Below are positions 9,203 through 31,910 of a stretch of DNA of 64,000 bases, piece by piece (the stretch's first letter is position 1; each line of letters begins with the position of its first letter). Below the pieces are notes generated by a model that did not search any database, was not told the origin of the DNA, and saw nothing but the letters and a program-made list of their open reading frames with translations. The position numbers and the translations under genes are program-made. Source of the stretch: Schmidtea polychroa (Eukaryota); NCBI GenBank assembly GCA_044892525.1, contig CM097888.1, positions 14,322,001-14,386,000 on the forward strand, given 5' to 3'.

Positions 9203-9255
9203 ATTGGACGAAAAGTAATATATAAAGAGCGACAAAAATCTGTAGAGTATCATTC
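9203..9255 (+). promoter_or_regulatory. Candidate LTR core promoter (inverted CCAAT, TATA, Inr)
   Basis: ATTGG at 9203-9207, TATATAAA at 9219-9226 and TCATTC at 9250-9255, with the Inr A 33 nt after the TATA start. Duplicated at 35415-35467. Confidence 0.55.
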
Positions 9256-11533: not shown

Positions 11534-12295
11534 ATGCCTGCTTCAACCGCTTCGAACAAGGATCTTCGTCCATGCTTCTCCTGCGCAGATAAAAACGCAG
11601 TCATAGCCCAACTCCACTTATATATCGGGGCACTGAAAAAGAGAATTGATCTCTATGAAGGCACGTGGTTCTCCCCGCCACAAATGAAGGAGGAGCGCAG
11701 TAAAATTCTTCGGTTGGAACATTGCCGGGACAGCCTCCTAGAGGAGAGTCGCTGTCAAAGATTGACGATCAAGGCGCAATCGGAAGCCCTCCACAAGGTC
11801 TATACGGAGGCAGAATTGGCCAAACGGGTACGAGAATTTCCCGTCTTGGAGGCCAGCAATGTTTTTCCAACTCATCACCAAAGTATTTCCACCGCTACAA
11901 CCAGTTGTTTGGGGCACGGCTCCTATCTGCCGCCTGTTCCAGCACCGGCCTTATACAGTCATCAGCCGCCGGTAGGTGGTCCATCCGACCCTATCTTGGC
12001 TCCAGTTTTAGTGACATCCGTTACAGCACCCGATGCGGACAGTCGCCAACCACAGCGTAAAAGAAAACGGCCGACCCGAGCCGCCAAAAACCAAAGACGT
12101 CGAGAGGCAATCGCGGCTCTCGAGGCGTCGTTATCTGTGGCCAAGTCTTCTCTGGAAAAGTTATCGTCGATACCCTCTATCCCCACAAAGGAGATATTCC
12201 GGGTGATCTCACCCGATGGGGTCCAGCTCGTGCGAGACCGTCGGTTACCGGTTGACATCGACGAGATGATCGCCGAAGGGGAAGTTTTCCCATAA
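11534..12295 (+). CDS. LTR-encoded 253-aa protein (CxxC, coiled coil, Pro-rich linker, Arg-rich motif)
   Basis: ATG directly after TTTAG. The protein is identical in both LTRs, and a diverged homolog exists at 55073-55791 (-). Confidence 0.7.
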   Translation: MPASTASNKDLRPCFSCADKNAVIAQLHLYIGALKKRIDLYEGTWFSPPQMKEERSKILRLEHCRDSLLEESRCQRLTIKAQSEALHKVYTEAELAKRVREFPVLEASNVFPTHHQSISTATTSCLGHGSYLPPVPAPALYSHQPPVGGPSDPILAPVLVTSVTAPDADSRQPQRKRKRPTRAAKNQRRREAIAALEASLSVAKSSLEKLSSIPSIPTKEIFRVISPDGVQLVRDRRLPVDIDEMIAEGEVFP

Positions 12296-12836
12296 TTGGA
12301 CGTGTCGATTTACCCATCTCTCATCCGACGCGATCAAGCTCAACAATCTTTATGAATGACTTAGATGATGCGTGCTTGTACTCTCCTACGTGTTGTGATC
12401 TACAATTTGTGTTCATATGTATCCTCAATTTCATTAATATAATCATAGTATTCGTTATGTTGTCCCGTAAAAGTTATAGAGTAATGAGTGATGTCTTGAT
12501 GAATGAATTGGAATGACCATTGGAGAATGTGGGTCGTCCCCTTGGACCAGGGTCGTACCCAGAATGCATGACGAGTATGGGTAAGACCTTCTTAGGCACC
12601 GGGGAACCTGAACTGAGAGTGGGTCCGTAGTAGTCCTAAGGCAGGGGCTCACCTGCAGATCAACTCCGACCCGTGTGAGCAGCACCAACGTGGGTAGATC
12701 ATCACGGGCTCACATGAGGGAATATTTGTAAATCATGCGGGTTATGTGGGGGAAGGGCCCCGAGCTAAAGGAACATGAGGCCAGCTGCACTACGAATGTC
12801 CGTTTGACTCCTCCCATATACGCCCAACATGATTTT

Positions 12837-12854
12837 TGGGGGCTCAGCCGGGAT
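12837..12854 (+). promoter_or_regulatory. Primer-binding site, tRNA-Pro-like
   Basis: TGGGGGCTCAGCCGGGAT matches 16/18 of the standard tRNA-Pro PBS TGGGGGCTCGTCCGGGAT. It begins 7 nt after the LTR end. Confidence 0.85.
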
Positions 12855-13802: not shown

Positions 13803-14384
13803 CACGCGATCAGCACTCGGTGAAAGAATTGATCTGATTGACGATTTGACTAAATCCTTTATGTTTAATTGATGGGTCAATAATTTTTTAGTAAATGTGT
13901 ATATTGCATGTGGCTTAAGCCAAATAATGAATAAAATGTTTTGTGTGTTCATTTTATTGTGAATTCAGTAACTTTATGATAATTTTCACCATAGAGAGAG
14001 AGCATCAATAAACTTAATTTAAACAAATAATATAAAGTGGAACTAGTCCCAACATAGGGTTAAAGGGGGAATAAACCGAGCCACCTTCGGGAGGTACGTT
14101 ATACAAATGCCGTTTGGGAAGGGACAACCGATCACCCCGAGTAAGAGATGTAAGGCGAGGTACCATCGCGAATATTGAAAAGTTTCTACGGTATGGCTGA
14201 TCACCATACCAATGTGGAAATGGATCAATGCGATCGTTTTGCGTTTTGAGCAAGGGGGGAAAGGGGAAAATATTCTCAAGCGGTGAAGATTAGGTCGACA
14301 AATAAAGTAAAAAATAAAGGAGATGACAGTTTAGAATAAAAGGAGAGGAGGAAATAGAAGCATGCAGATCAGGAGATATTAAGG

Positions 14385-14673
14385 TCGAGTTGTTGAATAG
14401 TCCAACCGGTCAGAAGAAGAAGATTGAGCTGTGAATAGTGCCAGCCAGTCGTAAGATCGAGTTGTTGAATAGTCCAACCGGTCAGAAGAAGAAGATTGAG
14501 CTGTGAATAGTGCCAGCCAGTCGTAAGATCGAGTTGTTGAATAGTCCAACCGGTCAGAAGGAAGAAGATTGAGCTGTTGAATAGTGCCAGCCAGTCGTAA
14601 GATCGAGTTGTTGAATAGTCCAACCGGTCAGGAGAAGAAGATTGAGCTGTTGAAAAGTGCCAGCCAGTCGTAA
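14385..14673. repeat. Tandem array, 4 copies of a 72-74-bp unit in the element leader
   Basis: Units start with TCGAGTTGTTGAATAGTCCAACCGGTCAG at 14385, 14457, 14529 and 14603. No variable spacers. Confidence 0.95.
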
Positions 14674-14966: not shown

Positions 14967-16056
14967 AGACAAAAGTTCTACAGAATATTTTTGGTTTAAA
15001 CCGGTTAAACGAATTTTGTTTTGGTTCCAGAGCAGAACCGAGTAAAAGGAAATAGAGATGAAAGATTAAATGAATAAGCGGAACCGCGCAAAAGGATTAA
15101 GGAAAATATGGGGGGTAATAAGCAGTAACTGACAACGACCTATCGATATTATAAATGCTAACTATAGATAATTTATACGACTATATAGATAATTGTTACT
15201 ACCCCAAATAGATAATTAAAAATCGACGAAAACTATGGGTTGATGGGTAATTATATTCCGCGGAGAAGTGTATGAGGGGAAATGAAGAGAAGCATAACAG
15301 AGGCCCAAAAATGGTGTCTGTGCTTGAATGTGGTAAAAAGGAATGATTGATTCGTGTAAGCAAATGCAACACGATATCATTTTTTCATTGTAGATACCCA
15401 TCCAACCAAGTCAATTCAGAACCAGCCCAAAAGGAAGCCAGAGAATATACAAACAACCCAGGAAAAGCAATTCAGAACCCGCATAAAGAAAAACAAGCCA
15501 ATCCGAACACGGAGGACGACAACGACATCTTTACCTACGACGGAATTATCGAAATACTAAGCATCGACGTGATAGCAGCAGTCAATCAAGGACTCAGATA
15601 TCTCCTCCGGAAATCAGCCGAGAAATTACGCGGAATATTCCTCGAAGGAAACACTATCAGAACCAAACTTGACCAATTCAGCAGCCGCTAACCGTAGAAA
15701 AATCCACGTGAAAAGACAGAAAAGAGTAAGAAAGAATCACGGATAAACCCAACCTTAGATCTTCAAGTAAGCCAGGAGACGTATTATTTTCAGGAGACGA
15801 ATTAGATCAACTCAAAAGAGGACGATCATTTAGGCAGCAGAGAGGAATATCACAAGGAGCAAAAAGACCCCACAAAACACCGATATACGATCAAGAAAAC
15901 CCCACAGCCGGACATACGCCCAGTCGATCTAGAAGTAGAGAAAGCCTATCCGATATAACAAACAACCTAACCGGGTCAACAGAAGAATTATCCGTCCATA
16001 GTTTAGCTACATCGCTGGAAAATTTAAAAGGAATAATCGAGTTTCAAGAACCAATC

Positions 16057-16962
16057 ATGACGAATGTGGTAAAAACCGACGAATATAAAGAAAAATTTAG
16101 AGGCGAACCATTCAACGGGAATGCGAACAAGTTGGCAACGTTCATAACAAATTTTGAAGTCTATATCGATGTGTGTGGATGGACATCAGAAGCAATTAGC
16201 AAACGGATGCCGTTGTTTTTATGTGATAGCGCATTAGAAGTGTATCTAGAAGCAAAAGAAAGAAATACGAAGTTAGACAATTGGGAAAGCATCAAAACAT
16301 TTTTGAGAAAAACATTCGGAGCCAGCAAACCAATAAATCAAGCCCTAGGAGAATTAGCGAGTAGAAAACAAAGAGCAAATGAATCCATAACGTTGTATGC
16401 GAGTGAATTGCGAAGATTGGCAAAGAAGGCCATGAACGGAAACTTGCCGGAGGAAAATTTAATTGGTTATTTCATAGAAGGACTGCGCCGAGAAGAGGTA
16501 AGGGCCTCGGTGGGATGTCAAATGTGTAAAACACTAGAGGAAGCCATAGATTGGGCCACGAGATGCGAACTCCACCTCCCGGCACAAATGAATGTCATGC
16601 AAGAGGAAGGAAGAATCGCAACAGCAACGGTAAAAACTGAAAATGGAGAGAACAGCAATCATGAACCAAAAATGAATCAGTTTATACCCGGTGCGCATCA
16701 AATTTTCAAACCACCGCAAGGACGATCAAATGGGAATAACAGTGAACGCAACAACCCGAACAATGGGAATAATTTTAATAATCGACGAAACACGAACGAT
16801 AACAAACAATGCCGAACATGCGGTAAACCAGGACATTGGGATAGAGATTGCTACCGAAACGCAAATTGCAATAGGTGTGGACGACGAGGACACACGGAAA
16901 ATATATGCCAATTAAGAGGATGTTTTAACTGCGGTCAACTAGGTCATATCTCAAGAGACTGT
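16057..16962 (+). CDS. gag: Gag portion: capsid-like domain and three CCHC zinc knuckles
   Basis: PFNG...W...L...A...Y and RKQRANESITLYASELRRLA are retrotransposon gag features. Knuckles CRTCGKPGHWDRDC, CNRCGRRGHTENIC and CFNCGQLGHISRDC span 16810-16962. Confidence 0.92.
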
Positions 16963-19900
16963 CGAGAAAGGAGCCAACAACAACGACCACCACAGCGAAA
17001 TAATAACTATGCACCAAATCCGCAACGACAAAGTAATCCTAGTGAGGGAAAGCAAATGAATGTGATGCAAGAAATTTCACAAATGAAGCAGATGATGCAA
17101 CAAATGATGAGACCGAGACAAGAGCAAGTACCACAACAAACCCAGAATATACGCATGATGAGGAGCACCGAGAATCTTAACAACTATGAAGTACAACAAC
17201 ATGCACAAGAATGGCAAAGACTACAAGCTGAAGAAGAGAGGATAAAAAGAGAGCGAATCCAGCAGCGACAAGAACAACCATTACGAATAAATATGATGAG
17301 AATGGCAAGGGAGATAAAAGAGCAATATTGTTACAATTACGGTAAAAATCCAAGAGTTGTACCTATGAGCGAACCAGAGAAACCGAAAGAAACAATTCCA
17401 GCAGCAAAAAAGGAAAATTCAACAACATCGCTAAAAGGAAATCAGAGAATTCAGAAAATATTTTGGAAAAAGATAAAAGATAAAATCGAAAGAGAAAATG
17501 AAAAAACAAAAACAGAAGCAGAAGCGGAAAATGACGAAAATGAAAAACAGATTAATCATCTAAATCATGATATGATACGAGGATTAGACTCAGAGGAGCT
17601 AACGATACTCGAGAACAAAAAATTAAAGAAAGTACCAAGAATGAGAAATTTACGAATTAATATGATGAGGACAACAAAGAAGGTGTTGTCAACAGATGAC
17701 GATGAGGATTATGTGAGTAGCCTTGGTGGAGAAATGTTACAGTTAAATGAAAATATCGACCAACTAAGAGAAAAGATCGGAGCAGATGAGGATGAAAGTG
17801 AAAGCAACGTGACAAGCGAAAGCGAAGACGAGAATATCGAAATGAAATTGAGAAAAGAAAGAGAAGAAGCGATAAAACAAGTAAAGGAAATACTTCCAGT
17901 GGTGGTAAGAAACCAGGAATTCATTGACATCATACCATACAGACGCTTCACACAAAGGATAATGAAACTAGAAAGAAACGAAAAAGATCTAATACCAAAC
18001 GAGGAAAAAGCGATAATAAAGAAGTATATGGAAAAAATGAAACAAGCGGAGACAACACGCTATGTAATAAAAATCGGAACGAGCAAAGGACTCGAGAGAA
18101 TATGGATAAAAAATGCAGTTACAGACGATCTTTTCGATTGGATAAGAGAACATTTGGGCAGCTCGAGAAAGAAAGAATACCTGTATCAATATCAAGGAGA
18201 ACAAATCAAACCAGACATGCACCTAATAGATGCATTGATCTGGCCAGGAGAAACTCAAATATTGAAATTGCATAAAGAGAAGCAACCAGCGAATATTCAC
18301 GAATGGGCTAAAGACGCCAAGGCCGAGTATGACTTTAACATCAAGCTGAAGCTGGAGCAAATAAAACAATGCACCTTGCGACGAAATCTAGATAAATTAA
18401 TCAAACAAATCCAAGAACAAGTTGAAGATAACTGGGATTTGCTCATAACAAGACGAACTGCAGACATGCATGAACTAATGAGCCGACTGCGAGATACAGA
18501 ACTGCTCAGGATGAGCGATTGGAGAACCATAAATTTGATCCACAAATACGGAAGATTAAAAGAAACGCAACCGCAGAAATTAGAAATAACCATATGGTTA
18601 CCAAATGAGGAGAAACGACGAATAAAGATGAGTAATCAGAGTACGGTGGATGACTTAGTAACCAAGATAAACCAAGAGATAACGGAAAAAGTACGAAGCG
18701 AGAGCAGCGATGGTATGATAGATGACGTAGTCATGATGTACGATAAAATAATACTACGGGCTGAAGACGATACCTCGTTAAGTGAAATGGGAATGTGGGA
18801 TAATCATCAAATCATCAGAATATTGCCCATGGACGAATTCCGAACAAGAGATGTAACATACCAGAAAGAAATACGAGACAGGATGAAAACGCTATATCAA
18901 AAATCAGTAGAGATAATTGAAATTCATCAACAGTGGCTAAAAGAAAAAGAGCTTCAAGGAAAAATAAAGAAACTAAGTGTTAGATCCTGCAGACGAACCC
19001 CATGGGAAAGGATGTGGAATGCGGAAAACAAAGAATGGGAAATCAGGAAAGGGATTTTCGTGGAAACAGACATTGGTGAGATAGAAAGCGAATCAGAAGA
19101 AGAGGAAGATGAACCTCCAAAATACGAAGAGGACGAAATAAAATCGACATCGGACGACGAAAGCGAAACGGATGTTACGTCAGAAAGTGAAACGGAAACC
19201 AGGCATATTCATGCGATGAGAAAGAAGGAACGCGAATACGCCGACATAGACGGGGAAGAGGCAAAAGAAGCGAGAGAACGAGAAGAGAAGGAAAGATATA
19301 AACAATTAGGTGATATCTTAGCAACGGGAGCAAAAAATCAAAAACGTCAAGTAATAGCATTGGCTAACATCATCCTAAAGACATCAGAGAATATCCACAA
19401 TCTAAGAGAAATGGCGAAAGCGATTGAGGAATACCGACAATATAACGAATGGTACCCAGAACAGCTAGAACAAATTATTAGGAAATGGAGAAACCAAGAA
19501 TGGGCACAAGATACCCAGGAAAGGTATCGTATCCGAGTCAAGTATCCCGACAAAAGCATTGAGGATATAGAAGTACATCCAACAACAAAGATCAGAGAGT
19601 TAAAAAAGAAATTAGCATACGAAACTCCATTTCACCTACAACTATTCGGAAAATCGTTGGATGATAATGCAGATGTCGGAATAACACCCATGAGATTGGG
19701 GGAGATCAATGTATTGACAATGGCAGAAACATTGGGAAAACCGATTAAAAGGAAGAGCAAATCAAGTAAACCTACGAAAGGTAGCTTGAGTACACCAAGC
19801 CCTAACAAAGTAGCGAGTAAATCGAATGAAACCGAGGAAATCGAGGAAATTATATTGGAAGACAGCGATGAAGGAGCGGGAGAAAGATCACCAATTCTGG

Positions 19901-22900
19901 TAAGATGGCCGACAGGAGCCGAAATATGGACAACGAGCCAACCATCAACTAGCTATCAACAACCACATAAACTGAACATAGAGGAAATTATCGATAATAC
20001 AACAGAAACCGAAACCGACGAACAATTCCAACGACAGAAAGGACCAACGAAAGCAACACCAGAAGGTCAAACAGACAAAATAATAGACGAATGGAACGAA
20101 TGGCTGAGAAACAACGATAGCTCATTGCCCAGAACAGATAATGAGAGAAACCCGAAGTATGAAACGACAAGAGAAGCCGGAACAATGATGGAAAAACGGG
20201 CAAAAGGAAGACCTAGGAAGCAAGGAGAAAAACCAGAATTCAAAACTAGAGAACAACTGAAACAAGAACAAGGACAAGTCAGATTAGAGAAACTGGATAA
20301 AATAGTGTGGGACTTAAAAGAAGCTCAACCAACAATCGAGAGAGGCGAAAAATGGATACGAGAGCTAGTAAAAGATATGCTAATAATAACGAACCCACAA
20401 TTGCGACGGTTATGGCAACGAAAAGTAGCAAGCGTAGATGCCAGACAACTATGGAATACAATATCCGGAATAATTCCGAAATTAATCAAAGAGAAGACAA
20501 AAACCACTAAAACCGATTGGGAAGAGACAAGAAGAGTAATTGAACAATTAACTTTAAACGCAAACGACGACGAACATCATTTAGTAGTATTAACGTATCT
20601 AATGTACAATTTGATGGGATTAGCAGCAAGGAAAATACCTAACAAACAATTCGCAAATCATGTAGAAATGACCGTTACAATCATTGAAAATACAATCGAA
20701 CCACATATTATCCGCGCCGGTGGGTGGAAAAGACTCATACAAGCGCCACGAAAAAACGAGCAAGAGAGATCAATGCAAATTCGGTTGAAGAAATTGCTAA
20801 ACGAGCTGGAATGGGAATTACCATTGAAAGACCCAGCCAGCAGAAAAGCGTCGATTAATTCACTAATGATGACCATGATGATATGGATGCTCTGCACTAG
20901 TGGAGCCGCGGGATTTACTATTTACGACTGTGACAATTCAATAATAGGAGAAAGATACTCCCTGAGAGATATAGAGGAATGTAGACAGGCATCTCCGAAT
21001 AAATTAGATATAGTAAAAAAGAAAGTCTCCTATCACGTATACCAAGAATCAGATTTCATTAGAACGCAAGCTAGAGAATGCGTAGTATCGAAGAAAGTGT
21101 TGGCATACTACTGTGGACAATACTCATATTCAACCCTTATATTACCGGGATTAGATAAAGAAATAGTACCTATACAACGGGAAGACTGTAAAGAACTTTT
21201 TAGAACCGGAGCGATGAGAATCAGGGATGGAGTAACCATACACGGACAAAGCGGAATGATCAAGACGGAAAGTATCTATGTAGCCGGACGAGTAAAATCA
21301 ACTGATGGATCATGTAACGGAGGCACATATACGATCAGAGGAGAAGTGATCTCGGGAGTAGTAGTAATTGAGTCCTACACAGTGGAGTTGAAGGAATACG
21401 AAGCACAATTCGACGCAAACAACTATCAAATGAAAACCAACCCAGCATGCAGAGCTACGGAAAACGTGTGTAGAACGGGAATTTCGACTATAATATATGA
21501 AGCTAACACCCAAAAATGCCGACTGCAATTGTTAAAAAGTGCTCTATTCAATGAAGTAAAAGGAGAAATTTACGAAAACGAGGATGACGATGAAGAGAAT
21601 GGGAACGTAAGGATGCGAAATGGGAAACCAGTCCCGCCATCCCCCAAAGAAAAGAGACTCACAACCCAAAAAACACCAACGGCATTAATTACAGATGATC
21701 CGGACATCGGCATGAGATTCATTAGAGAAAAAGAGACCACCAAATGTGACAGCATAGTATATCGGACGAACTACGCAGGTATCTACATGTCAAGGCAAGT
21801 AATAGACCGAGCAGTGGGAAAGGTAGCAACAGAGGACGTAAAATTGTACCTGTACGCTAATAACAAAATGGACTTTTTATTTCATCGAGGACAAACGACA
21901 ATGCAAAAAGTGTATTACGATCTTATACAAAATGACTGTTCATTGAATAAAGAGATACTAAAAACAAAATTAGCTATCGCAATAACACACCCAGATAACA
22001 CAATGCCATCACTCCCGTTACCGGATGGACATTTTGGTAGAATGGTGGGAGAGGTAATGTATACATATGCATGTACCAAGACATTTGCGCGACTGCCAAG
22101 AAAGCCCACAATTCCACCAGGGAAATGTGCAAACGAATTAGAAATTAGCTACAAAGGGCGGAACAGATTCGTTCAACCAGTCACTCGAATTATGAACCCA
22201 ATTGGATTTTATCCGAACACCTTTAACTGTTCAAATGCATACGGACCGTTATATGAAAAACCCGATGGGAAATGGATAATGTTACCGGTAAAAACCGAAG
22301 TACAAGAACCTAAAAAGTTTGGATTAATAGAACTCGCAACAGAGCAAGACTTCAAACCAATTGATGTGTCAAAAGCGGGTATGTACTCACCAGAGGATTT
22401 AGAAACGGCACGATTAAACGTATTATTCCCAGCAAGGCGAGAATCCATTCTATCAAATATGGTTACCATAACTGGGGGAACGAATTTCCAGTCAGGCCCC
22501 AATTACGAACTATTATTGTCACCCGATCATTTTCAACAAGCCACGTCAAACATGATGAAAGCAATGTGGGGAAGATTTCTAGTGTTCGGTCAAATGATGG
22601 CAGGAATATTGGGAATCATCTTAATTATCCAGATTGTTAGAGTGATATTGACTCAAATGCTAGCGTGTTTTGATATCTATAAGAGAGAAAAGAAAGTAAA
22701 TTGGAAGTTGATAGTAGGTTTTCTACCATTTTTGGCAAAAACAATGGTGTTGCACGGTCATTCTAAAGATATACACAGAATAAAACGATTAATCAAAATA
22801 CTGACAAAAATAAAAGGGACTGACGAGGAGGTCGGTAGACGATTTCGGAAAACAATGTATGATGAAGCAACAAGGACGCAACTGAAAAAGAACAAACCAA

Positions 22901-25900
22901 AATTTTTGGACAGATTTAGAAATCGGTCAAACAGCAGCGATAGCGATGATGACGACAACGGGAATGACAAATACCCATATCCAAGTAGAAACCCGAATGA
23001 AAAGCCAATAGAAACAGCGCCATATTGGGAGAAAGAAAAAACAAATACCTGGATAACCAACGGAAGTTATATACCACCAGATATCGTTGGACAACAAACA
23101 GCTTTGACCATGACACAAAATATGTATCCACAGTTACCAAGTCAACCAGGGATGAACTATATGCCGAACCGAAGAACGAAAAGCGTAGACCAAGCGGATG
23201 ACGTAAGAACGATAGCAGTGATGAGTTCACCAGGAGGCGCGGCAGTAACAGTCATGATCCAAATCAACGGGAAAGAGACAAGCGCAATGATAGATACCGG
23301 AGCAAATGTATCAGCAATAGCAATCAACCAAATACCCAGTAAATGTTGGAAAGACATCGAACAAACAACTATCCATATCATCGCATGCAGTAAAGAAACC
23401 GTAGACGTAGTAGGAAGATGGTGGACTACGTTAAGATATCAAGATAACGAAATTGAAACGTATCTAGCGGTGATACCCAAACTGAGTGAACCATGTATAA
23501 TCGGAACGGATTTAATGCCAGAATTGTTCAAGGAAGTAGTGATCGATTTAACAACAATGTGTCTAAAGGACAAAACGGGTAGAATATGCAAGATGAACGC
23601 AATAATTAGATGTCCGGAGAAAATAATTGTACCAGCAAAATCACAGATGATATGTCAAATAAAAGTGGATGCAGGAATGGAAGGAGAAGTCATTTTTGAG
23701 CCAAGCAAATCATTCGAAAAACGACGAGAATTACCATTAGCAAGAGAAATAATAACAATAAATGAAGACGGGGAAATACCAATCAACATCACAAATTTCG
23801 AGGAAGAAGATAAAATCATATATGAAAATGAAAGATTGGGTAGATTGACACCCATGATAGACATCGAATTACCAAAAATCACCAACGAAACAACGAAAGC
23901 TGACGAATTATGGATAATTGACAGCACCTTGCTAACGGAAAAAGAAAAGGAAAGACTTCAACAATTATTGATAGAATATAAAGATATATTCGCAATTTCG
24001 GATTTAGATTTGGGAGCATGCGATGTTACATTACACGCAATACCATTAATAGACGAAACTCCAATCGCACTACGTCCATACAAACTAGCAGAGAAGCAAA
24101 AAGAGATAGCCGAAGCAGAAGTACAAAAAATGCTAGATGCACAAGTGATCGAACCAAGTTGTTCGCCATGGCAATTTCCCGTAGTCATGGTGAAGAAAAA
24201 AGATGGTACTCAGAGATTCTGTATCGATTATCGGAAATTAAATGCAGTAACAAAAAGAGACACATACCCGTTACCAGACATCAATGAGATGTTACTTATG
24301 TTACAGGGGGCCGCATATTTTACATCTTTAGATCTGAAAAGCGGATATTGGCAGATCAAAGTCAAAGAGGAAGACAAAGAGAAAACAGCATTCACATTGG
24401 GCCGAGATCTATACCAATTCAGGAAAATGCCGTTCGGACTGACCAATGCCCCAGCATCATTCCAGAGATGTATGAATTTTGTCACACATGGGATCAAGCA
24501 GTGTATGGTATATATTGATGATTTATTAATATATTCAGCAACATTCGAACAACATTTGGAAGATATCAGAAACGTGTTCGTTCGATTACGACAATGGAAA
24601 TTGAAACTCAAACCATCCAAATGTGATTGGGCAAAAGAAAAGGTTACGTTCTTAGGACACATAGTGTCAGCAAAAGGCAAAGAACCAGATCCAAGAAACA
24701 TAGAAAAAATAAAAACATGTCCAGCACCAAAAACTGTCACCCAAGTTCAAGAATTTCTCGGATTATGCGGATATTATCGAAAATTCATCAAAAACTATGC
24801 AGGTATTGCGAAACCAATACAGGACTTAGTGAAAAAGGATATTTCATTTATTTGGGGTGCAGAACAACAAAAAGCATTTGAGACATTGCGAGATAAATTA
24901 ATTGAAGCTCCAATACTGGTACATCCTGATTTCAAGAAACCGTTCTTATTAGCAACAGATGCAAGTGGATATGCAGCCGGAGCAATATTAGGACAACTGG
25001 ATGAAGAGGGAAAAGAAAGAGTGATTGGATACTACAGTAGAACGTTTAAAAAGCATGAGAAAAACTATTCCGTAACCGAGAGAGAAGCATTAGCAATTAT
25101 ACAAGCGATTAAACATTTTCGATATTTGTTGTGGGGACACGAAATATGTATCACAACAGATCATCAACCACTAGTATGGCTTGGCCAACACAAAGAAGCT
25201 TCAAGTAGATTGATGCGATGGGCAATGCAGTTACAAGAATATTCACCGTTCATAAAATTCAAAGCGGGAAGAGCGAATGCCAATGCGGATTGTATGTCCA
25301 GATTTATCTTTCCAGATTTAGTAGATCACGAAACGCAACGAATATGTCTGATGGTAGCAGAAGATCTAGATTTTTGCCAATTACGGAAAGACCAACAAGA
25401 GGATACAGAGTTGAAGCAAATCATTGAATATGTGAAAACAGGGAAAGCAGAGGTATATGAGAAAGATCAAAAATTGAAGGAGCATATGGATAAACATCGA
25501 CATCGATATATTATCGAGAAAGACTGGTTGTTGATAATGGATGGAGAAAAAAGACTGATGTGCATCCCCGAGAATAGACGTAAAGAGCTGCTAACACAAT
25601 ACCATGACGGAAGACTCGGAGGACATATGTCATCTAAAAAGACGTTGGCACGAATGAAACAAAAGTATTTTTGGCCTACATTGACCGAGGATGTAACGGA
25701 ATGGGTGAAAAATTGCATAACTTGCGCAACCAGAAAAAACACGGGAACCAAATGGAAGGCACCATTAAAGCCAATGCCAGTACCAGCAGAACCAATGACC
25801 ATGATATCAATGGACGTGGTCGGTCCACTACCAGAATCAGATAGAGGAAATATATATATATTGGTAATCACAGACTATTTGACGAAATTCCCCGAAGCAT

Positions 25901-28900
25901 TCGCTATGGCAGATCAGAAAGCAAGAACAATCGCAAAAATACTAGTAGAGGAGATATGTTGTCGATATGGAACACCAAAACAGATATTAACTGACCAAGG
26001 AACAAATTTCATGAGCGAAATAATGAGCGAAGTCACCAACTACTTCAAGATCGCAAAATTAAGAACATCACCGTACCATCCACAAACTAATGGTATGACG
26101 GAAAGATTCAATGGAACACTGATTCAAATGTTATCAAATTATGTCGATCGTCATCAACGCGACTGGGACGAGTATATAAAATTATGTTTAATGGCTTACA
26201 GAATGTCGATTCACGCGTCCACAAAGATGAGTCCGTTCAAGTTGATGTACGGCAGAGAATGCAATATGCCAATGGATTTGGAGTATCAGCCACCAATATC
26301 ACAGTACATGGAAATAGACGATTATGTAACCAAGTTCAAGGAAAGAATGCAGGAAATCTGGGAAACTGCAGGATTGAATATAAAATTTTATCAGGAAAGT
26401 TACAAAGATCTACATGATAGAAAGAAAAACGTCAAACAGCATACGTTTCAAACAGGCGATTGGGTGATGATCGAAACACCAGAATTAATTCTAGGAACCA
26501 CCAAAAAATTACAACGAAACGGTAAAGGTCCGTATGAGATCCTATTCATCGGAGAAACCAATGTAAGAGTACGATTGGTAAACAACCCCTTCACAAGGCC
26601 AATATATGTAAATGTGGCACGATGTAAGCCAATACCGAAAACAGCCACCAGCCAGCCGGAAGGGCGAACATTAACAACAAGATCACAAACATATAGAATA
26701 AATATGTTACAGCAGATAAACGAACCAACAGGTAACCGATTGGGGTTACAACCATCAGAAGCCGAGAAAATCATAAAGGAAGTGAAAGCTAAAATGCCCG
26801 GATGGGCAGAAGACAGATTAGATTTTGAGATATTGGGAGGTCTGCTAACAATGATCGAAAATTATGCAAACCGAGAAAGGACACACCCATTACTCAGGGT
26901 AGTAAAAAGTCAATGGCCTATATTATTTACGATCACAGACCATTATGGAGATACACCGCTGCACAAACTTTTAAAGGTCGGGAATAATGAACAAATACTG
27001 GAAACGATCGAAGCATTTCGCGATTGTAACGTTTCAACAGATCAAGAAAATAACCAAGGTTACACTCCACTAATGATAGCAGCCAATCGGGATAAAGCTA
27101 AAGATATTATCATCGCATTACTTGAAACTGGGTCAAAGATAACCACACAAGACCACAACCAGAAAAATGCACTACATCATGCAATCGAAGGGAAAAGTAC
27201 GGAAGCCTTCATAATCTTAGTAGATCTATTATCATATGAGGATAATAGGGAGATAGGAAACATGTATGACGGGTTATTAACTGCAATCAAAGAGAAATTA
27301 ATAATAATTACTGGAATACTAATTGCGTGGAGGAACCCGATCAAAAACGATTATATGGTAGATATAAACGAAACATTTACCAAAGGAGAAAATACCTTGA
27401 TGAGGGAAGCGATGAGAGGACATCACCTATTCGAAATTCCAAATCAACTACTACAACGTGGCATAAAGTTTTCAAATCACAAAGACGAACAACTAATCAG
27501 AAAACGAATTACCAACTTCGAAAAAGCTATATCTCAATTTACCGATAAAGTACAAGTAAAATTTTGGGAAACCGTGAGTGTATTATATATGATGGAAACT
27601 ATGAACAACATTCGAGAAAACTACCTAAGTATTATTCAAGTGCTTACGGCGGAAGAACGCATTAACAGTTCAAACAAGAAAAAGATAAAAATAAAGAAAG
27701 TAAAAACAAGGGAGTCCGAGGAACAAGTCGATCAAATAATAACCGAGATAGCAACAACAAGTAAACCCAAGATAATAAACTCAGACCAGGAGATAATAAT
27801 ACGCAAAGCCAAAGAGGTGTTCTTTGAAGAAATGCAAGATCTATCCGATGAAGCGATACTAGCAAAAATAACAAAAACAGTACACACCTACGCAAGAGAC
27901 CAGACCACAAATCTAGACATAGAAAAAATAAAAACATTTATACCACTAGCATTCACCTTACCAACAAAAGACTCAAGAACACCATTACAACAAGCCATTT
28001 TAGCAGCAAAAGAAAACAGAGCAATAACCATCATAAGAATCCTGGGAGACTTCGGAGAAGAATCTAATGCAAAAAACGAACAAGGAGAAACAGCAATAAT
28101 GTATGCAGCCATAACAAATATACACCCGAAAACATTACATATACTACATCGATCGGGATCAAGACTGGACGAAATATCAAACGAAGGAAATTCTACCATG
28201 GATTGGGCAACCATACAACCAAACTTGGAAATGATTAGATTCATTTGTAAAAATGCTACAAGAACTGAGGTAGAAAATATCTGTAAAAACACGTCACAGT
28301 TCCAATGGAACACGATACGGATGAACTTAGAAGCCATGAAGTTATTGCTAACATGGAAAATACCGCAAAGCAATAAACATGCAATAAATATAAATGAGTT
28401 CTACGAAAACGGAGAAAATGCTATGGTTAAAAATACACTAACAAAAGGAGGAACTCCGAAAATCATAATGATCGTATTGAACAGAGAAGACCTCAAATTC
28501 ACGCAAAATCTAAACGAACAAAAGCGGATTGGAAAACATCGCCGTATACAATTGAGAGAACTGGTAAAAGAATGGAATAGAAAGAGACATGTAGCAACAG
28601 GCAGAAAAGAGTTTGAATTCGAGGCAAAATTAGCAAGGAATAGAGTGTTAACGGCATATCGCAGATTATTGAACGACATAAATGTCGAGGACGACATTTC
28701 AAACGATAGCGGGGGAGATAAAGACGATAAAGACGACGATAATAATGAACAAGGTCGAAGCGGGAATGGAGAGAAAGAGAAATCAGAGGAAAATAATCAA
28801 GGGAATAACGACTCAGGTATAAAAAAGGAGGAAAATAAACCGGGAAGCCGAACAAAGGAAGAGGAAAAGACGAATAATGGGAAACAGAGGGTATGCCCAC

Positions 28901-29904
28901 TTTTTACCAACAAGGAAATGGAAACAAATATGATGGTAATGATACTCATACTAACAATGATAGAAATGATAACAGCCCACGGTGGAATGAGAACGATAAA
29001 AGAAGCCAAGGAAACGGAAAACAAAGACAACAAGGAGAAGGAACTAAAGCAAGAAAAGAAGAAGCAAGTACGAGAGCAACAATGGGATTTAAAAGAAGAA
29101 TGGGATCTAAAAGAAAGATGCATACTAGGAAGATGTATGTCGAGAGCATATCGGAGACTAGTATTAATAAATGAAGATACAGAACCAATAACGGAAGTAA
29201 GAATACAAGAAGCATACCGGAATCGAGACGGGAAGAGAATAACTAAAGTCAAAGGGAAGGAGGTACACCTGAGAAAAGGAGGTGAGGTAGTGATAACGCA
29301 ACTCCAGCCAAGAAAAGAACACAAAGTCTGCATTTCAAGATTAGGACCGGGTGAAGACTGTCTACAATATGTAACACAGCAACAACCTCCAAAAGAATAC
29401 ACAGTATGCATCTGGAGAAACGATACAGCGAGAGAATGTCGACGATACCCTGGGAGAAGAGGGAGGAAAAGAAAAATCAATGACGAAAAAGATGAGCAAG
29501 GAAAACGCAAGAAAACCGATGAAAACCAGATGGAGAAAATACAAAGAATGGCAAAGGAAGGTATGAACGAGGAAATAGCAAGAATACGAGGAATGATGAA
29601 AGGAAATGGCAAAGACGGTAATCTAAAAAGCACAGAAGCAATATCAACAATAGCGAACAAGGAAAAAGCAGAAATTATAAGCGTAAAACAGATGATGTGG
29701 ATCAGCGGCATAATAATAACAGGGGCCTTTTTAATCATAACGGGGGGGACAATAAAAATAATCAAAGATAGACGGCATCGCGGAGAACTAGAAATGGCCA
29801 GAATAAGAAATTTTCAACATCGTGTAAGACGACCAAGTAATATCAAGCAGGAACAGTGGGTGGAGGCCTGGAATGCTCAGCGCCCTCCAAGCTCACGTAT
29901 ATAG
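16057..29904 (+). CDS. 4615-aa single-ORF polyprotein Gag-UBL-Bcl2-Env-PR-RT-RH-IN-ANK-TM
   Basis: Uninterrupted 13.8-kb ORF with recognisable motifs listed in the sub-features. Confidence 0.95.
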   Translation: MTNVVKTDEYKEKFRGEPFNGNANKLATFITNFEVYIDVCGWTSEAISKRMPLFLCDSALEVYLEAKERNTKLDNWESIKTFLRKTFGASKPINQALGELASRKQRANESITLYASELRRLAKKAMNGNLPEENLIGYFIEGLRREEVRASVGCQMCKTLEEAIDWATRCELHLPAQMNVMQEEGRIATATVKTENGENSNHEPKMNQFIPGAHQIFKPPQGRSNGNNSERNNPNNGNNFNNRRNTNDNKQCRTCGKPGHWDRDCYRNANCNRCGRRGHTENICQLRGCFNCGQLGHISRDCRERSQQQRPPQRNNNYAPNPQRQSNPSEGKQMNVMQEISQMKQMMQQMMRPRQEQVPQQTQNIRMMRSTENLNNYEVQQHAQEWQRLQAEEERIKRERIQQRQEQPLRINMMRMAREIKEQYCYNYGKNPRVVPMSEPEKPKETIPAAKKENSTTSLKGNQRIQKIFWKKIKDKIERENEKTKTEAEAENDENEKQINHLNHDMIRGLDSEELTILENKKLKKVPRMRNLRINMMRTTKKVLSTDDDEDYVSSLGGEMLQLNENIDQLREKIGADEDESESNVTSESEDENIEMKLRKEREEAIKQVKEILPVVVRNQEFIDIIPYRRFTQRIMKLERNEKDLIPNEEKAIIKKYMEKMKQAETTRYVIKIGTSKGLERIWIKNAVTDDLFDWIREHLGSSRKKEYLYQYQGEQIKPDMHLIDALIWPGETQILKLHKEKQPANIHEWAKDAKAEYDFNIKLKLEQIKQCTLRRNLDKLIKQIQEQVEDNWDLLITRRTADMHELMSRLRDTELLRMSDWRTINLIHKYGRLKETQPQKLEITIWLPNEEKRRIKMSNQSTVDDLVTKINQEITEKVRSESSDGMIDDVVMMYDKIILRAEDDTSLSEMGMWDNHQIIRILPMDEFRTRDVTYQKEIRDRMKTLYQKSVEIIEIHQQWLKEKELQGKIKKLSVRSCRRTPWERMWNAENKEWEIRKGIFVETDIGEIESESEEEEDEPPKYEEDEIKSTSDDESETDVTSESETETRHIHAMRKKEREYADIDGEEAKEAREREEKERYKQLGDILATGAKNQKRQVIALANIILKTSENIHNLREMAKAIEEYRQYNEWYPEQLEQIIRKWRNQEWAQDTQERYRIRVKYPDKSIEDIEVHPTTKIRELKKKLAYETPFHLQLFGKSLDDNADVGITPMRLGEINVLTMAETLGKPIKRKSKSSKPTKGSLSTPSPNKVASKSNETEEIEEIILEDSDEGAGERSPILVRWPTGAEIWTTSQPSTSYQQPHKLNIEEIIDNTTETETDEQFQRQKGPTKATPEGQTDKIIDEWNEWLRNNDSSLPRTDNERNPKYETTREAGTMMEKRAKGRPRKQGEKPEFKTREQLKQEQGQVRLEKLDKIVWDLKEAQPTIERGEKWIRELVKDMLIITNPQLRRLWQRKVASVDARQLWNTISGIIPKLIKEKTKTTKTDWEETRRVIEQLTLNANDDEHHLVVLTYLMYNLMGLAARKIPNKQFANHVEMTVTIIENTIEPHIIRAGGWKRLIQAPRKNEQERSMQIRLKKLLNELEWELPLKDPASRKASINSLMMTMMIWMLCTSGAAGFTIYDCDNSIIGERYSLRDIEECRQASPNKLDIVKKKVSYHVYQESDFIRTQARECVVSKKVLAYYCGQYSYSTLILPGLDKEIVPIQREDCKELFRTGAMRIRDGVTIHGQSGMIKTESIYVAGRVKSTDGSCNGGTYTIRGEVISGVVVIESYTVELKEYEAQFDANNYQMKTNPACRATENVCRTGISTIIYEANTQKCRLQLLKSALFNEVKGEIYENEDDDEENGNVRMRNGKPVPPSPKEKRLTTQKTPTALITDDPDIGMRFIREKETTKCDSIVYRTNYAGIYMSRQVIDRAVGKVATEDVKLYLYANNKMDFLFHRGQTTMQKVYYDLIQNDCSLNKEILKTKLAIAITHPDNTMPSLPLPDGHFGRMVGEVMYTYACTKTFARLPRKPTIPPGKCANELEISYKGRNRFVQPVTRIMNPIGFYPNTFNCSNAYGPLYEKPDGKWIMLPVKTEVQEPKKFGLIELATEQDFKPIDVSKAGMYSPEDLETARLNVLFPARRESILSNMVTITGGTNFQSGPNYELLLSPDHFQQATSNMMKAMWGRFLVFGQMMAGILGIILIIQIVRVILTQMLACFDIYKREKKVNWKLIVGFLPFLAKTMVLHGHSKDIHRIKRLIKILTKIKGTDEEVGRRFRKTMYDEATRTQLKKNKPKFLDRFRNRSNSSDSDDDDNGNDKYPYPSRNPNEKPIETAPYWEKEKTNTWITNGSYIPPDIVGQQTALTMTQNMYPQLPSQPGMNYMPNRRTKSVDQADDVRTIAVMSSPGGAAVTVMIQINGKETSAMIDTGANVSAIAINQIPSKCWKDIEQTTIHIIACSKETVDVVGRWWTTLRYQDNEIETYLAVIPKLSEPCIIGTDLMPELFKEVVIDLTTMCLKDKTGRICKMNAIIRCPEKIIVPAKSQMICQIKVDAGMEGEVIFEPSKSFEKRRELPLAREIITINEDGEIPINITNFEEEDKIIYENERLGRLTPMIDIELPKITNETTKADELWIIDSTLLTEKEKERLQQLLIEYKDIFAISDLDLGACDVTLHAIPLIDETPIALRPYKLAEKQKEIAEAEVQKMLDAQVIEPSCSPWQFPVVMVKKKDGTQRFCIDYRKLNAVTKRDTYPLPDINEMLLMLQGAAYFTSLDLKSGYWQIKVKEEDKEKTAFTLGRDLYQFRKMPFGLTNAPASFQRCMNFVTHGIKQCMVYIDDLLIYSATFEQHLEDIRNVFVRLRQWKLKLKPSKCDWAKEKVTFLGHIVSAKGKEPDPRNIEKIKTCPAPKTVTQVQEFLGLCGYYRKFIKNYAGIAKPIQDLVKKDISFIWGAEQQKAFETLRDKLIEAPILVHPDFKKPFLLATDASGYAAGAILGQLDEEGKERVIGYYSRTFKKHEKNYSVTEREALAIIQAIKHFRYLLWGHEICITTDHQPLVWLGQHKEASSRLMRWAMQLQEYSPFIKFKAGRANANADCMSRFIFPDLVDHETQRICLMVAEDLDFCQLRKDQQEDTELKQIIEYVKTGKAEVYEKDQKLKEHMDKHRHRYIIEKDWLLIMDGEKRLMCIPENRRKELLTQYHDGRLGGHMSSKKTLARMKQKYFWPTLTEDVTEWVKNCITCATRKNTGTKWKAPLKPMPVPAEPMTMISMDVVGPLPESDRGNIYILVITDYLTKFPEAFAMADQKARTIAKILVEEICCRYGTPKQILTDQGTNFMSEIMSEVTNYFKIAKLRTSPYHPQTNGMTERFNGTLIQMLSNYVDRHQRDWDEYIKLCLMAYRMSIHASTKMSPFKLMYGRECNMPMDLEYQPPISQYMEIDDYVTKFKERMQEIWETAGLNIKFYQESYKDLHDRKKNVKQHTFQTGDWVMIETPELILGTTKKLQRNGKGPYEILFIGETNVRVRLVNNPFTRPIYVNVARCKPIPKTATSQPEGRTLTTRSQTYRINMLQQINEPTGNRLGLQPSEAEKIIKEVKAKMPGWAEDRLDFEILGGLLTMIENYANRERTHPLLRVVKSQWPILFTITDHYGDTPLHKLLKVGNNEQILETIEAFRDCNVSTDQENNQGYTPLMIAANRDKAKDIIIALLETGSKITTQDHNQKNALHHAIEGKSTEAFIILVDLLSYEDNREIGNMYDGLLTAIKEKLIIITGILIAWRNPIKNDYMVDINETFTKGENTLMREAMRGHHLFEIPNQLLQRGIKFSNHKDEQLIRKRITNFEKAISQFTDKVQVKFWETVSVLYMMETMNNIRENYLSIIQVLTAEERINSSNKKKIKIKKVKTRESEEQVDQIITEIATTSKPKIINSDQEIIIRKAKEVFFEEMQDLSDEAILAKITKTVHTYARDQTTNLDIEKIKTFIPLAFTLPTKDSRTPLQQAILAAKENRAITIIRILGDFGEESNAKNEQGETAIMYAAITNIHPKTLHILHRSGSRLDEISNEGNSTMDWATIQPNLEMIRFICKNATRTEVENICKNTSQFQWNTIRMNLEAMKLLLTWKIPQSNKHAININEFYENGENAMVKNTLTKGGTPKIIMIVLNREDLKFTQNLNEQKRIGKHRRIQLRELVKEWNRKRHVATGRKEFEFEAKLARNRVLTAYRRLLNDINVEDDISNDSGGDKDDKDDDNNEQGRSGNGEKEKSEENNQGNNDSGIKKEENKPGSRTKEEEKTNNGKQRVCPLFTNKEMETNMMVMILILTMIEMITAHGGMRTIKEAKETENKDNKEKELKQEKKKQVREQQWDLKEEWDLKERCILGRCMSRAYRRLVLINEDTEPITEVRIQEAYRNRDGKRITKVKGKEVHLRKGGEVVITQLQPRKEHKVCISRLGPGEDCLQYVTQQQPPKEYTVCIWRNDTARECRRYPGRRGRKRKINDEKDEQGKRKKTDENQMEKIQRMAKEGMNEEIARIRGMMKGNGKDGNLKSTEAISTIANKEKAEIISVKQMMWISGIIITGAFLIITGGTIKIIKDRRHRGELEMARIRNFQHRVRRPSNIKQEQWVEAWNAQRPPSSRI
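18058..19725 (+). CDS. Three ubiquitin/SUMO-like folds inside the polyprotein (~18058-18280, ~18574-18835, ~19519-19725)
   Basis: For example RIRVKYPDKSIEDIEVHPTTKIRELKKKL...LQLFGKSLDD parallels ubiquitin [29 protein letters not shown]...RLIFAGKQLED. Confidence 0.6.
20280..20740 (+). CDS. Bcl-2-like helical domain
   Basis: All-helical segment ending in BH2-like TIEPHIIRAGGWKRL (GGW at 20719-20727). BH1 is degenerate. Confidence 0.55.
20851..22671 (+). CDS. env: Envelope-like fusion glycoprotein (chuvirus/Monjiviricetes-type, class III-like): signal helix, Cys-rich ectodomain, TM
   Basis: Signal-like LMMTMMIWMLCTSGAAG is followed by FTIYDC...YSLRDIEEC...REC-V-KKVLAYYCGQYS and about 14 Cys. 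TM FLVFGQMMAGILGIILIIQIVRVIL lies at 22576-22650. Confidence 0.75.
23227..23560 (+). CDS. pro: Retropepsin aspartic protease
   Basis: AMIDTGANVS (DTG at 23293-23301) and the IIGTDLM motif. Confidence 0.93.
23960..25310 (+). CDS. pol: Reverse transcriptase and RNase H
   Basis: RFCIDYRKLN, LDLKSGYWQI, MPFGLTNAPASFQR, YIDD (24511-24522), LATDASG, EREALAI and TTDHQPL. Confidence 0.97.
25560..26640 (+). CDS. int: Integrase (HHCC, DDE core, GPY/F)
   Basis: HDGRLGGH...CITC, SMDVVGP, TDQGTNF, NGMTERFN and GKGPYEI. Confidence 0.96.
26935..28260 (+). CDS. Ankyrin-repeat region fused after integrase (two clusters)
   Basis: GDTPLHKLL, GYTPLMIAA and QKNALHHAI, then SRTPLQQAI, GETAIMYAA and GNSTMDWAT. 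Confidence 0.85.
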
Positions 29905-30432: not shown

Positions 30433-30521
30433 ATATAACCTAAAATAGCAATGTAAATAACTGTAAATAAAAATACGAAACTGTACCAGTAACGAATATA
30501 TGTATATATATAATTATAGAA

Positions 30522-31394
30522 ATGGATAAGCGACAACGAGAAGAATTCAAAGAAATTGTCGAACAAGTCAGAAAGTCCACCACAATTCGAATACACAACC
30601 ATGTAACGTGTGGAATATGCAAGAACTTATTAAGAGAACCTCACCAAACCCGATGTGGATGCAGAATGTGCAGAGAATGTGTAGAGGAGGTAATAAAGAA
30701 GGGACCACAATGGTGCCCAGTATGCAAAGAAACAATGATAACAAGTTTGGGAGATACAAACGAAGATAAAGCAGCTGTAAAAGATATGATGAATGCAAAC
30801 CTAGGATGCAAAAACACCCCATGTAATTGGCGAGGAGTGATATGGGAAGTGAGGCAACATATGGAGCAATGTGAATATAAAATCAGTCAATGCAAACGTT
30901 GCCAAGAAGAGATTAAAGTCAATGAAGAAGCAGAACATCAAAGTCGATGCGAAGAAAGACTGGAGAAATGTGAGTATTGCGGAGAAACCGACACCTGGAA
31001 AAAACTAATCAGTCAACATCACAACATACAAGAGGAGAAAGTGTGCGCAGAATTCAGAGGAGAATGCCCCAACAAATGCGATAAACCCGGAGTAATAAAA
31101 CTCGCTCAACATCTGAAAGAATGTGAAAGGAAAAAGATAAGGTGTGTGTTAGGAAAATGGGGATGTCAGAAACAATTACACCGAGGGGAATTACCCCAAC
31201 ATCTAGCAGAAAACGTATCAACACACGCGGAAATATGGTCAACGGTATTACAAGAAAACGAAAGGAAAACCGAAAACTTAGAAAGAGAAATAGTCTCGCT
31301 AAAAGCGTTGGTAAAAGAACTATTGGAAGAAAAGGAAGCATTCGAAGAGGCGAGAACAAGCACAAAGATACAAACAGATCTAGTAGAAACTTAG
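30522..31394 (+). CDS. TRAF homolog N-terminal part (RING, TRAF zinc fingers, coiled coil)
   Basis: CGICKNLLREPHQTRCGCRMCREC...CPVC, CKNTPCNWRG...HMEQC and CVLGKWGC...HL are TRAF-type motifs. Ends at TAG 31392-31394. Confidence 0.88.
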   Translation: MDKRQREEFKEIVEQVRKSTTIRIHNHVTCGICKNLLREPHQTRCGCRMCRECVEEVIKKGPQWCPVCKETMITSLGDTNEDKAAVKDMMNANLGCKNTPCNWRGVIWEVRQHMEQCEYKISQCKRCQEEIKVNEEAEHQSRCEERLEKCEYCGETDTWKKLISQHHNIQEEKVCAEFRGECPNKCDKPGVIKLAQHLKECERKKIRCVLGKWGCQKQLHRGELPQHLAENVSTHAEIWSTVLQENERKTENLEREIVSLKALVKELLEEKEAFEEARTSTKIQTDLVET

Positions 31395-31400
31395 AACATT

Positions 31401-31910
31401 ATGGTGAAAGAACTACATCAAAAAGTAAGCGAATTAAACCTCAACGAATTAATACCAACGGCTCCATACATATGGAAGATAACGGGAGTAAAAGAGAAGA
31501 TGCAGAGAGCGAGAAATGGAAAGGATACAACATTACTAAGTCCAGCATTCTACTCATGGAAAAACGGGTATAAAATGAAAATGAAAGCATACCCCAATGG
31601 GGATGGAAGTGCATATGGAACGCATTTCTCAGTATTCTTCTTGATATGCAAAGGGCTATACGACGAGTTAATAGAATGGCCATTCAAAGCAAAAATAGAC
31701 CTCGCAATGATGAACTATCAAAGTATACATGAACAGAGTTTCCATACAGCGGGAAGCCTCGTATGTTACCAAAGACCCTTGGAAGAAGAAGGACCAGCAA
31801 CTGGAGCACCGAATTTCATCCTACAGCGGAAAGTAGAAGACATGACGAGAAACGACACTATATACATAAAAATAGCGGTGAGGCGAGACGGGAAGAGTAG
31901 GACTGAGTAG
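31401..31910 (+). CDS. TRAF-C/MATH domain protein, in frame with the TRAF N-part
   Basis: YIWKITG, SPAFYS...GYKM...YPNGDG...THFSVFF...G.YD..IEWPF, YQRP and DTIYIKIAV. Confidence 0.92.
   Translation: MVKELHQKVSELNLNELIPTAPYIWKITGVKEKMQRARNGKDTTLLSPAFYSWKNGYKMKMKAYPNGDGSAYGTHFSVFFLICKGLYDELIEWPFKAKIDLAMMNYQSIHEQSFHTAGSLVCYQRPLEEEGPATGAPNFILQRKVEDMTRNDTIYIKIAVRRDGKSRTE

Follow-up and report, generated by a model that had tools for sequence, protein, structure and literature searches.

A Burro-type giant retrotransposon of Schmidtea polychroa with an internal envelope signal peptide that may also anchor a Bcl-2-like domain

When an envelope gene lies in frame between gag and pol, how can the envelope protein (Env) become luminal and Pol stay cytosolic? 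This question is not addressed in the literature that we examined, and it is raised by the locus analysed here, a stretch of 64,000 nucleotides of Schmidtea polychroa DNA that we call the window. An earlier note on this DNA had proposed that a single hydrophobic helix serves both as the tail anchor of a Bcl-2-like protein and as the signal peptide of Env, in a polyprotein with a flavivirus-style topology. The helix is encoded by an LTR element of 30.3 kb (positions 8735-39041) with LTRs of 4.1 kb. In one frame, ORF1 of this element has Pfam matches to gag, zf-CCHC, Bcl-2 (weak), Env, PR, RT, RH, IN and ankyrin domains, and RING and MATH ORFs are located 3' of ORF1 (Table 1). The Burro or GYPSM1 elements of Schmidtea mediterranea have been described as giant gypsy-like LTR retrotransposons of more than 30 kb with long LTRs and a single huge ORF1 that encodes Gag, three CCHC knuckles, a Ubl domain, BCL2, env, PR-RT-RH-IN and ankyrin repeats; their mononegavirus-like env lies in frame between BCL2 and PR, a position that was called unique, and a Ubi2/SUMO-like domain occupies the place that corresponds to the ubiquitin-like domain of the window element (PMC6431247). 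The shared features, i. e. a size of more than 30 kb, long LTRs and an ORF1 with Gag-BCL2-env-PR-RT-RH-IN and ankyrin repeats in frame, identify the window element as a Burro-type giant LTR retrotransposon. It is probably not Burro1 itself, since ORF1 has no Pfam match to MATH or BIR domains and RING and MATH are found downstream instead. The succession of Bcl-2 and env is already in print (PMC6431247), and it is therefore the topology that is the question. The term "signal peptide" is absent from PMC6431247, and its section on these elements contains nothing on topology or on a second membrane module. We found no statement of the proposed topology in the literature, although annotations of signal peptides or TM segments may already exist in the primary Burro papers (Lee et al. 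2026; Grohme et al. 2018). Burro elements are reported to escape repression in smedwi-2 RNAi animals (PMC8532177). Our analysis yields a testable membrane map with a predicted N-terminus of Env, and in addition a second membrane module.

Several features of the element and its surroundings may be mentioned here. No target-site duplication is evident at the LTR ends at 8735 and 39041, and six identical bases come after both LTRs. The PBS-like stretch may resemble a tRNA-Pro primer site. The 5' leader contains tandem repeats of 72-74 nt (14360-14673). Downstream of ORF1, a TRAF-like accessory gene (30471-31910) consists of RING/zinc-finger and MATH frames that are in phase and separated by one stop codon. 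Outside the element, the minus strand has an open frame of 1,463 codons without a Pfam match (47130-51521). When the genome (781 Mb) was searched for the Bcl-2/Env junction, all 135 scored copies (of 1,820 candidates) were 92-100% identical.

Table 1. Features of the window element and their positions in the window
Feature	Position	Strand	Remarks
5' LTR	8735-12829	+	TG...CA ends; 99.9% identity with the 3' LTR over 4,103 nt
PBS-like stretch	12837-12854	+	immediately 3' of the 5' LTR
ORF1 polyprotein	15730-29904	+	stop-free; 4,724 aa stop to stop; 4,615 aa from the first ATG at 16057
Ubiquitin-like domain 5' of Bcl-2	19498-19740	+	PF00240, E 0.003, under the curated cut-off
Bcl-2-like domain	20335-20751	+	BH2 motif IIRAGGW at 20707-20727; BH1 degenerate
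Linker, 45 aa	20728-20862	+	basic n-region (RKAS) at its end; candidate protease motif INSL at 20854
Internal signal peptide of Env	20863-20913	+	h-region 20863-20895, c-region TSGAAG; candidate residual anchor of the Bcl-2 fragment
Predicted signal-peptidase cut	20913/20914	+	AAG/F, same register as the N-terminal signals of related glycoproteins
Env ectodomain	20914-22593	+	mononegavirus/chuvirus-type fusion glycoprotein; PF24664, E 8e-72; predicted luminal
Env TM helix (stop-transfer)	22594-22650	+	best 19-mer dG about 0
Proline-broken amphipathic helix	22696-22752	+	dG +6.9; predicted non-spanning
PR, RT, RNase H, integrase core	23251-26082	+	Pfam; predicted cytosolic
Ankyrin repeats, best Pfam stretch	27001-27225	+	PF12796, E 1e-15
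Second internal signal-peptide-like helix	28930-28983	+	no Bcl-2 ahead; hydrophobicity pattern only
Second TM helix	29698-29763	+	closes a predicted luminal domain of about 240 aa
3' LTR	34946-39041	+	paired with the 5' LTR

The explanation that we favour as a whole, with a probability of roughly 0.55, is that of a membrane-threaded ORF1 product in which the signal helix of Env is left as the residual anchor of Bcl-2. ORF1 would be made as a single polyprotein. Its part ahead of Env, i. e. Gag, the ubiquitin-like domains and the Bcl-2-like domain, would be produced in the cytosol. Next, the helix at 20863-20895 would act as an internal signal that opens the translocon and directs the ectodomain to the ER lumen, and signal peptidase would cut at AAG/F. 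The TM helix of Env would halt the transfer, the next helix would lie on the membrane surface, and PR-RT-RH-IN-ankyrin would be cytosolic; finally, a second internal signal and a TM helix would give rise to another membrane protein at the end of the polyprotein, which with its two internal signals appears to cross the membrane four times. Since the Bcl-2-like domain lacks its own tail helix, the Bcl-2 fragment would end in the signal helix after the cut, with a cytosolic N-terminus like a tail-anchored Bcl-2 protein. The protease of the element would release this fragment from the upstream Gag, and it may then play a role in cell-death or immune signalling.

Judged by homology rather than by a predictor, the helix is Env's own signal peptide by descent. 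LMMTMMIWMLC (20863-20895), TSGAAG (20896-20913) and FTIYDC (from 20914) are all encoded in the frame 15730-29904, and exactly 45 residues separate the W of the BH2 motif from LMMTMMIWMLC; both the placement and the spacing had been read correctly in the earlier note. For the comparison of helices, 114 of 155 sequences were anchored on the first conserved cysteine of Env. The relatives with N-terminal signals, defined by a distance of at most 45 residues between the N-terminus and this cysteine, number 65; 32 of them are full-length stand-alone proteins, and some of the 65 may be element fragments called from the Met of the signal. In 62 of the 65, the hydrophobic core ends about 12 residues before the cysteine, as it does in the window. 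Of all 65, 56 sequences have G/A/S/C at -1, 49 have A/T/V/S/G at -3 and 64 have L/I/F/M/V at +1, a register that the window matches with A-A-G/F. Within the window family (39 rows, which are close copies and count the window twice), position -1 is G in 39 of 39, A occupies position -3 in 38 rows and T in the remaining one, and position -2 varies between A, T and S. Small residues at -3 and -1 together with a free -2 are the textbook pattern of signal peptidase. Moreover, the window has the features of a cleavable signal, i. e. a basic n-region, a short h-region and small residues at -3 and -1. By a home-made weight matrix, AAG/F came only 13th to 14th among the sites of the polyprotein, behind a site two residues upstream of it that came 6th. 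The proposal of an Env signal peptide with a cut at AAG/F agrees with the N-terminal signals of the related glycoproteins. Descent of the helix from a Bcl-2 tail anchor was considered and rejected, because the helix is in register with the signals of stand-alone glycoproteins.

The protein behind the helix matches the Monjiviricetes fusion glycoprotein family PF24664 with 242.6 bits at a cut-off of 27. Of its 14 ectodomain cysteines, 12 are kept in 32 of 32 stand-alone proteins and the other two in 28 of 32, and all are present in 15 of 15 polyproteins; this full conservation calls for oxidative folding in the lumen. The dN/dS ratio of Env is far under 1, and there is a single N-glycosylation sequon in its 560 aa. 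The window Env shares the signal register, the cysteines, the TM helix and the helix that follows it with the stand-alone (Monjiviricetes/chuvirus-type) glycoproteins; in contrast to the window, their signal is N-terminal and their post-TM helix is nearly always free of proline. The post-TM helix itself is present across the whole glycoprotein family, and it contains a proline in 12 of 12 Pol-fused but in only 1 of 32 stand-alone proteins, with the reservation that one of 13 polyproteins was dropped for gaps and that the remaining 12 are related and do not represent 12 independent events. It is also less hydrophobic in the Pol-fused set, with a median dG of 7.0 as compared to 5.0 (p 0.026; dG values on a Hessa-type scale). 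The proline and the lower hydrophobicity fit a surface helix and a cytosolic Pol; a second membrane span past the Env TM was rejected in view of the proline and the dG of this helix. These comparisons support a single TM helix in Env and the return of Pol to the cytosol, as had been suggested for PR-RT-IN. Taken together, the signal peptide and the overall topology, including translocation and cleavage by signal peptidase, are very probably as described above.

The identity of the Bcl-2-like domain is more difficult to recognise from the window alone: the match to Pfam Bcl-2 is weak (E 0.06-0.08), phmmer found no match in the PDB, and the ESM Atlas gave no usable match for this domain. Scanning the genome with Pfam and searching 1.84 billion representatives yielded further element families with a like arrangement; the domains of these related elements reach E 5e-5 against Pfam Bcl-2 in family B and 8e-5 to 0.012 in 4 of 28 scanned proteins. 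A profile built from 12 element-borne domains only finds Bcl-xL and Bcl-2 in the PDB (E 1e-5 to 1e-4) over BH1-BH2, which bears out the identity that had been proposed from the BH2 motif. An AlphaFold (AF2) model based on the alignment of the 12 domains reached a pLDDT of 65.5, and the single-sequence model was uninformative (pLDDT 46.9). With the former model, the Foldseek matches listed all belong to the Bcl-2 family, the best with E 0.004 and none at or below 0.001, with TM scores of 0.45-0.56. In the VIA wide search, Bcl-xL reached a Z of 8.1 with 116 aligned residues; unrelated helical bundles, which align over only about 70-80, reached the same Z. In five subfamily pairs, the dN of the domain is 0.02-0.05 and its dS ranges from 0.56 to saturation. 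By these sequence criteria, the domain is a maintained, divergent Bcl-2 homologue under purifying selection. With Bcl-xL (3spf/4qnq), BHRF1, KsBcl-2 and A179L it has the BH1-BH2 homology and, as predicted, a helical bundle in common; it differs from the cellular and viral Bcl-2-fold proteins in that it lacks the NWGR glycine, is embedded in a polyprotein and has the Env signal as its tail helix.

The missing glycine has consequences for the function that can be assumed. All 11 element rows with coverage of BH1 lack it, and the window reads D-D-E-H at the place of NWGR, so that the arginine is missing as well. The NWGR glycine is needed for BH3 binding. A canonical anti-apoptotic action is therefore uncertain, and we rather doubt that the domain traps BH3 proteins in this way. 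In view of the TRAF-like, ankyrin and ubiquitin-like cargo of the element, a role in immune signalling seems as plausible as an anti-apoptotic one; poxviral proteins with a Bcl-2 fold act in immune signalling. The IAP of a sister element has been reported to protect planarian stem cells (as cited in PMC13465017). If every Env molecule left one membrane-anchored Bcl-2 regulator behind, the production of the envelope would be coupled one-to-one to the protection of the host cell.

The genome also contains Bcl-2 genes outside the elements. One host Bcl-2 protein is 99% identical to S. mediterranea Bcl2-2. The L042/L044/L053 lineage, which obtains the best scores with the element profile, may represent the group of donors. 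Two multi-copy Bcl-2 genes (L046-L051, L059 and L060; L053-L058) lie in repeats and have their own stop-terminated tails; one of them has an intron, and the other is intronless and located beside a TBP-like ORF. Seven near-identical intronless Bcl2-2 copies without a tail helix (L031-L037) are clustered on C4 (89.9-90.8 Mb). Among the polyproteins, P0001, which is counted as Bcl-2-less, shows by eye a stretch that resembles a worn BH2 ahead of the signal (residues ~845-865), and the window, P0001-P0003 and P0006 have an AT-hook-like GRP motif ahead of the place of Bcl-2.

Does the helix stay with the Bcl-2 fragment? After the signal-peptidase cut, the fragment would be anchored by default unless it is trimmed. 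In 12 of 12 elements, the next hydrophobic helix after Bcl-2 is the Env signal, 26-58 aa past BH2, and none of the 12 domains has a tail helix of its own. The distance from BH2 to the cut is 42-76 aa in the 12 elements (62 in the window, 42, 46, 47 and 48 in the shortest), and it measures 43 in three stop-terminated Bcl-2 genes of this genome, whose tail helices are no more hydrophobic; this comparison covers a few multi-copy genes. Basic residues behind a tail helix are associated with mitochondrial targeting; the window has no K or R in the last 8 residues and none behind the helix, and the 12 elements have between 0 and 2. Of the 12 Bcl-2-adjacent helices, that of the window has the lowest hydrophobicity (11-mer Kyte-Doolittle value of 2.05). 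Neither hydrophobicity nor core length distinguishes the Bcl-2-adjacent helices (n=12) from the internal signals of Bcl-2-less polyproteins (n=21; 7 of 28 rows without a helix were dropped) or from N-terminal signals (n=55 of the 65), with p values of 0.08-0.82. In length and hydrophobicity there is thus no sign that the helix has adapted to the role of an anchor. Moreover, the same internal signal is found, among others, in the polyproteins P0001, P0011, P0016, P0019, P0021 and P0126, which have 370-895 residues ahead of it as well as Gag or Pol domains and are Bcl-2-less as judged by the element profile, which very divergent copies could escape. A quick Env tree groups the Bcl-2-less P0001-P0003 as sisters with the Bcl-2-bearing P0009 (SH-aLRT 97/99); on this tree, the Bcl-2 label requires six changes, three of which are forced by strong branches, and Bcl-2-less polyproteins are basal with weak support (83). 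By this comparison, Bcl-2 is gained or lost repeatedly while the signal persists, and the internal-signal design is wider than the Bcl-2-bearing elements. The earlier idea of one helix with two roles has fared unevenly: its signal-peptide half stands, whereas its tail-anchor half is no more than possible. The helix is not lengthened beside Bcl-2 and also occurs as a signal in Bcl-2-less polyproteins and stand-alone glycoproteins. For a lasting retention of the Bcl-2 fragment by the helix, we consider the odds to be even.

The same topology can be combined with a helix that is a signal peptide only, from which Bcl-2 is freed by the aspartic protease of the element at the n/h boundary or by signal peptide peptidase, to become soluble or loosely bound. 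The core protein of HCV is released by signal peptide peptidase, and the flavivirus capsid is cut off its anchor and thus provides the model for such a fate. ORF1 contains 9 copies of the motif [IM]-N-x-[MLIV] (16588-26698) where 3.2 are expected, several of them at junctions, i. e. at the end of capsid, NC, PR and IN, so that they may represent a candidate protease cleavage map; this enrichment is, however, partly circular because it was from this very sequence that the motif was derived. One copy, SINSLMM (20854), lies at the start of the helix and shows no variation in the 39 family rows, but about half of this site would be buried in the membrane. Again, the comparison with other families speaks against a general release site: by eye, the stretch from BH2 to the helix contains no like motif in families B, C and D or in P0004, P0006, P0009 and P0018, and the linker of family C comprises only about 20 aa and a basic patch and resembles a native Bcl-2 tail. 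On the other hand, the second internal signal comes after integrase, which must be freed, and adjacency therefore does not imply anchoring. All in all, we regard the release of Bcl-2 from the helix as unlikely, though as the most serious of the alternatives.

It is less probable still, and in our view improbable, that Env is mainly made from a message that arises by splicing or internal initiation and has its start at the methionines of the helix, which would then be an ordinary N-terminal signal with an incidental place after Bcl-2. The window helix does begin with MMTMM, and a Met at or near the start is present in 8 of the 12 Bcl-2-adjacent helices, but it is missing from the other 4 (L064, P0004, P0006, P0018). 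With Pol in frame behind Env, the full polyprotein must cross the helix anyway. Moreover, the linker is under purifying selection as a protein, with a dN of 0.022 within the family. Between families, its length and sequence differ. No GT..AG joint was seen among 15 of 46 joints (contigs of 4 sequencing runs), a result that has no bearing on splicing. Finally, the short h-region, the single sequon and the unusual position of a signal about 1,600 residues into the nascent chain might suggest that the helix is unused in the polyprotein and Env an unfolded or cytosolic passenger, which is very improbable given the complete conservation of the cysteines, the conserved -3/-1 pattern and TM helix and the low dN/dS.

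For the favoured reading, in which the signal helix is left on the Bcl-2 fragment, viral polyproteins provide precedents. In flavivirus C-prM and HCV core-E1, an internal signal peptide lies in a multi-pass polyprotein that is processed by host and own proteases. The flavivirus-style model of the earlier note thus holds for the topology and not for a retained anchor, from which the flavivirus capsid is severed. By analogy, the closest precedents for a retained anchor are the rubella capsid and NSm of Rift Valley fever virus (RVFV). The rubella capsid retains the signal peptide of E2, on which its mitochondrial targeting depends. Like the Bcl-2 fragment, it is the cytosolic part of a polyprotein, ends in the signal peptide of the next glycoprotein as a membrane and mitochondrial anchor, and is anti-apoptotic; unlike the element, it belongs to an RNA virus and has no Bcl-2 fold, and its anti-apoptotic effect does not require the anchor (PMC3040668). 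In the RVFV precursor NSm-Gn-Gc, signal peptidase severs the anti-apoptotic NSm from Gn, and NSm reaches the outer mitochondrial membrane via its C-terminal TM segment; the differences are that NSm is a short N-terminal protein, that no Bcl-2 homology is reported for it in the passages of PMC4926171 that we consulted, and that no Pol follows the glycoproteins. If the anchor is retained, the retroelement has arrived by convergence, and with a real Bcl-2 fold, at the trick that the rubella capsid and NSm of RVFV use. It is tempting to speculate further that, in one lineage of LTR retroelements, Gag, Env and Pol are all parts of a multi-pass polyprotein that has two internal signal peptides, that its planarian members captured Bcl-2 exactly before the first signal, which replaced the tail anchor of Bcl-2, and that each Env leaves one membrane-anchored Bcl-2-fold regulator at the ER or the mitochondrion; this complete scenario is tentative and unlikely to apply in all its parts.

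The second of these signals belongs to a signal-plus-TM module that we infer from hydrophobicity. In the window element and in families B and C (L090, L092), a signal-like helix, 220-340 residues and a TM helix follow integrase, and the module has no match in Pfam or the ESM Atlas. A deletion derivative of family B' is present in three dispersed copies that are 98-100% identical (L069:3310-3490, corresponding to G000:C2:128251261; G000:C3:26915272; G000:C2:177074715). It has an in-frame deletion of about 6.25 kb at an 8-nt microhomology by which the Env signal, Env and Pol were lost, and the Bcl-2 domain now lies about 110 aa ahead of the second TM helix. This could reflect selection that keeps Bcl-2 together with a membrane helix, or a deletion that is in frame by chance.
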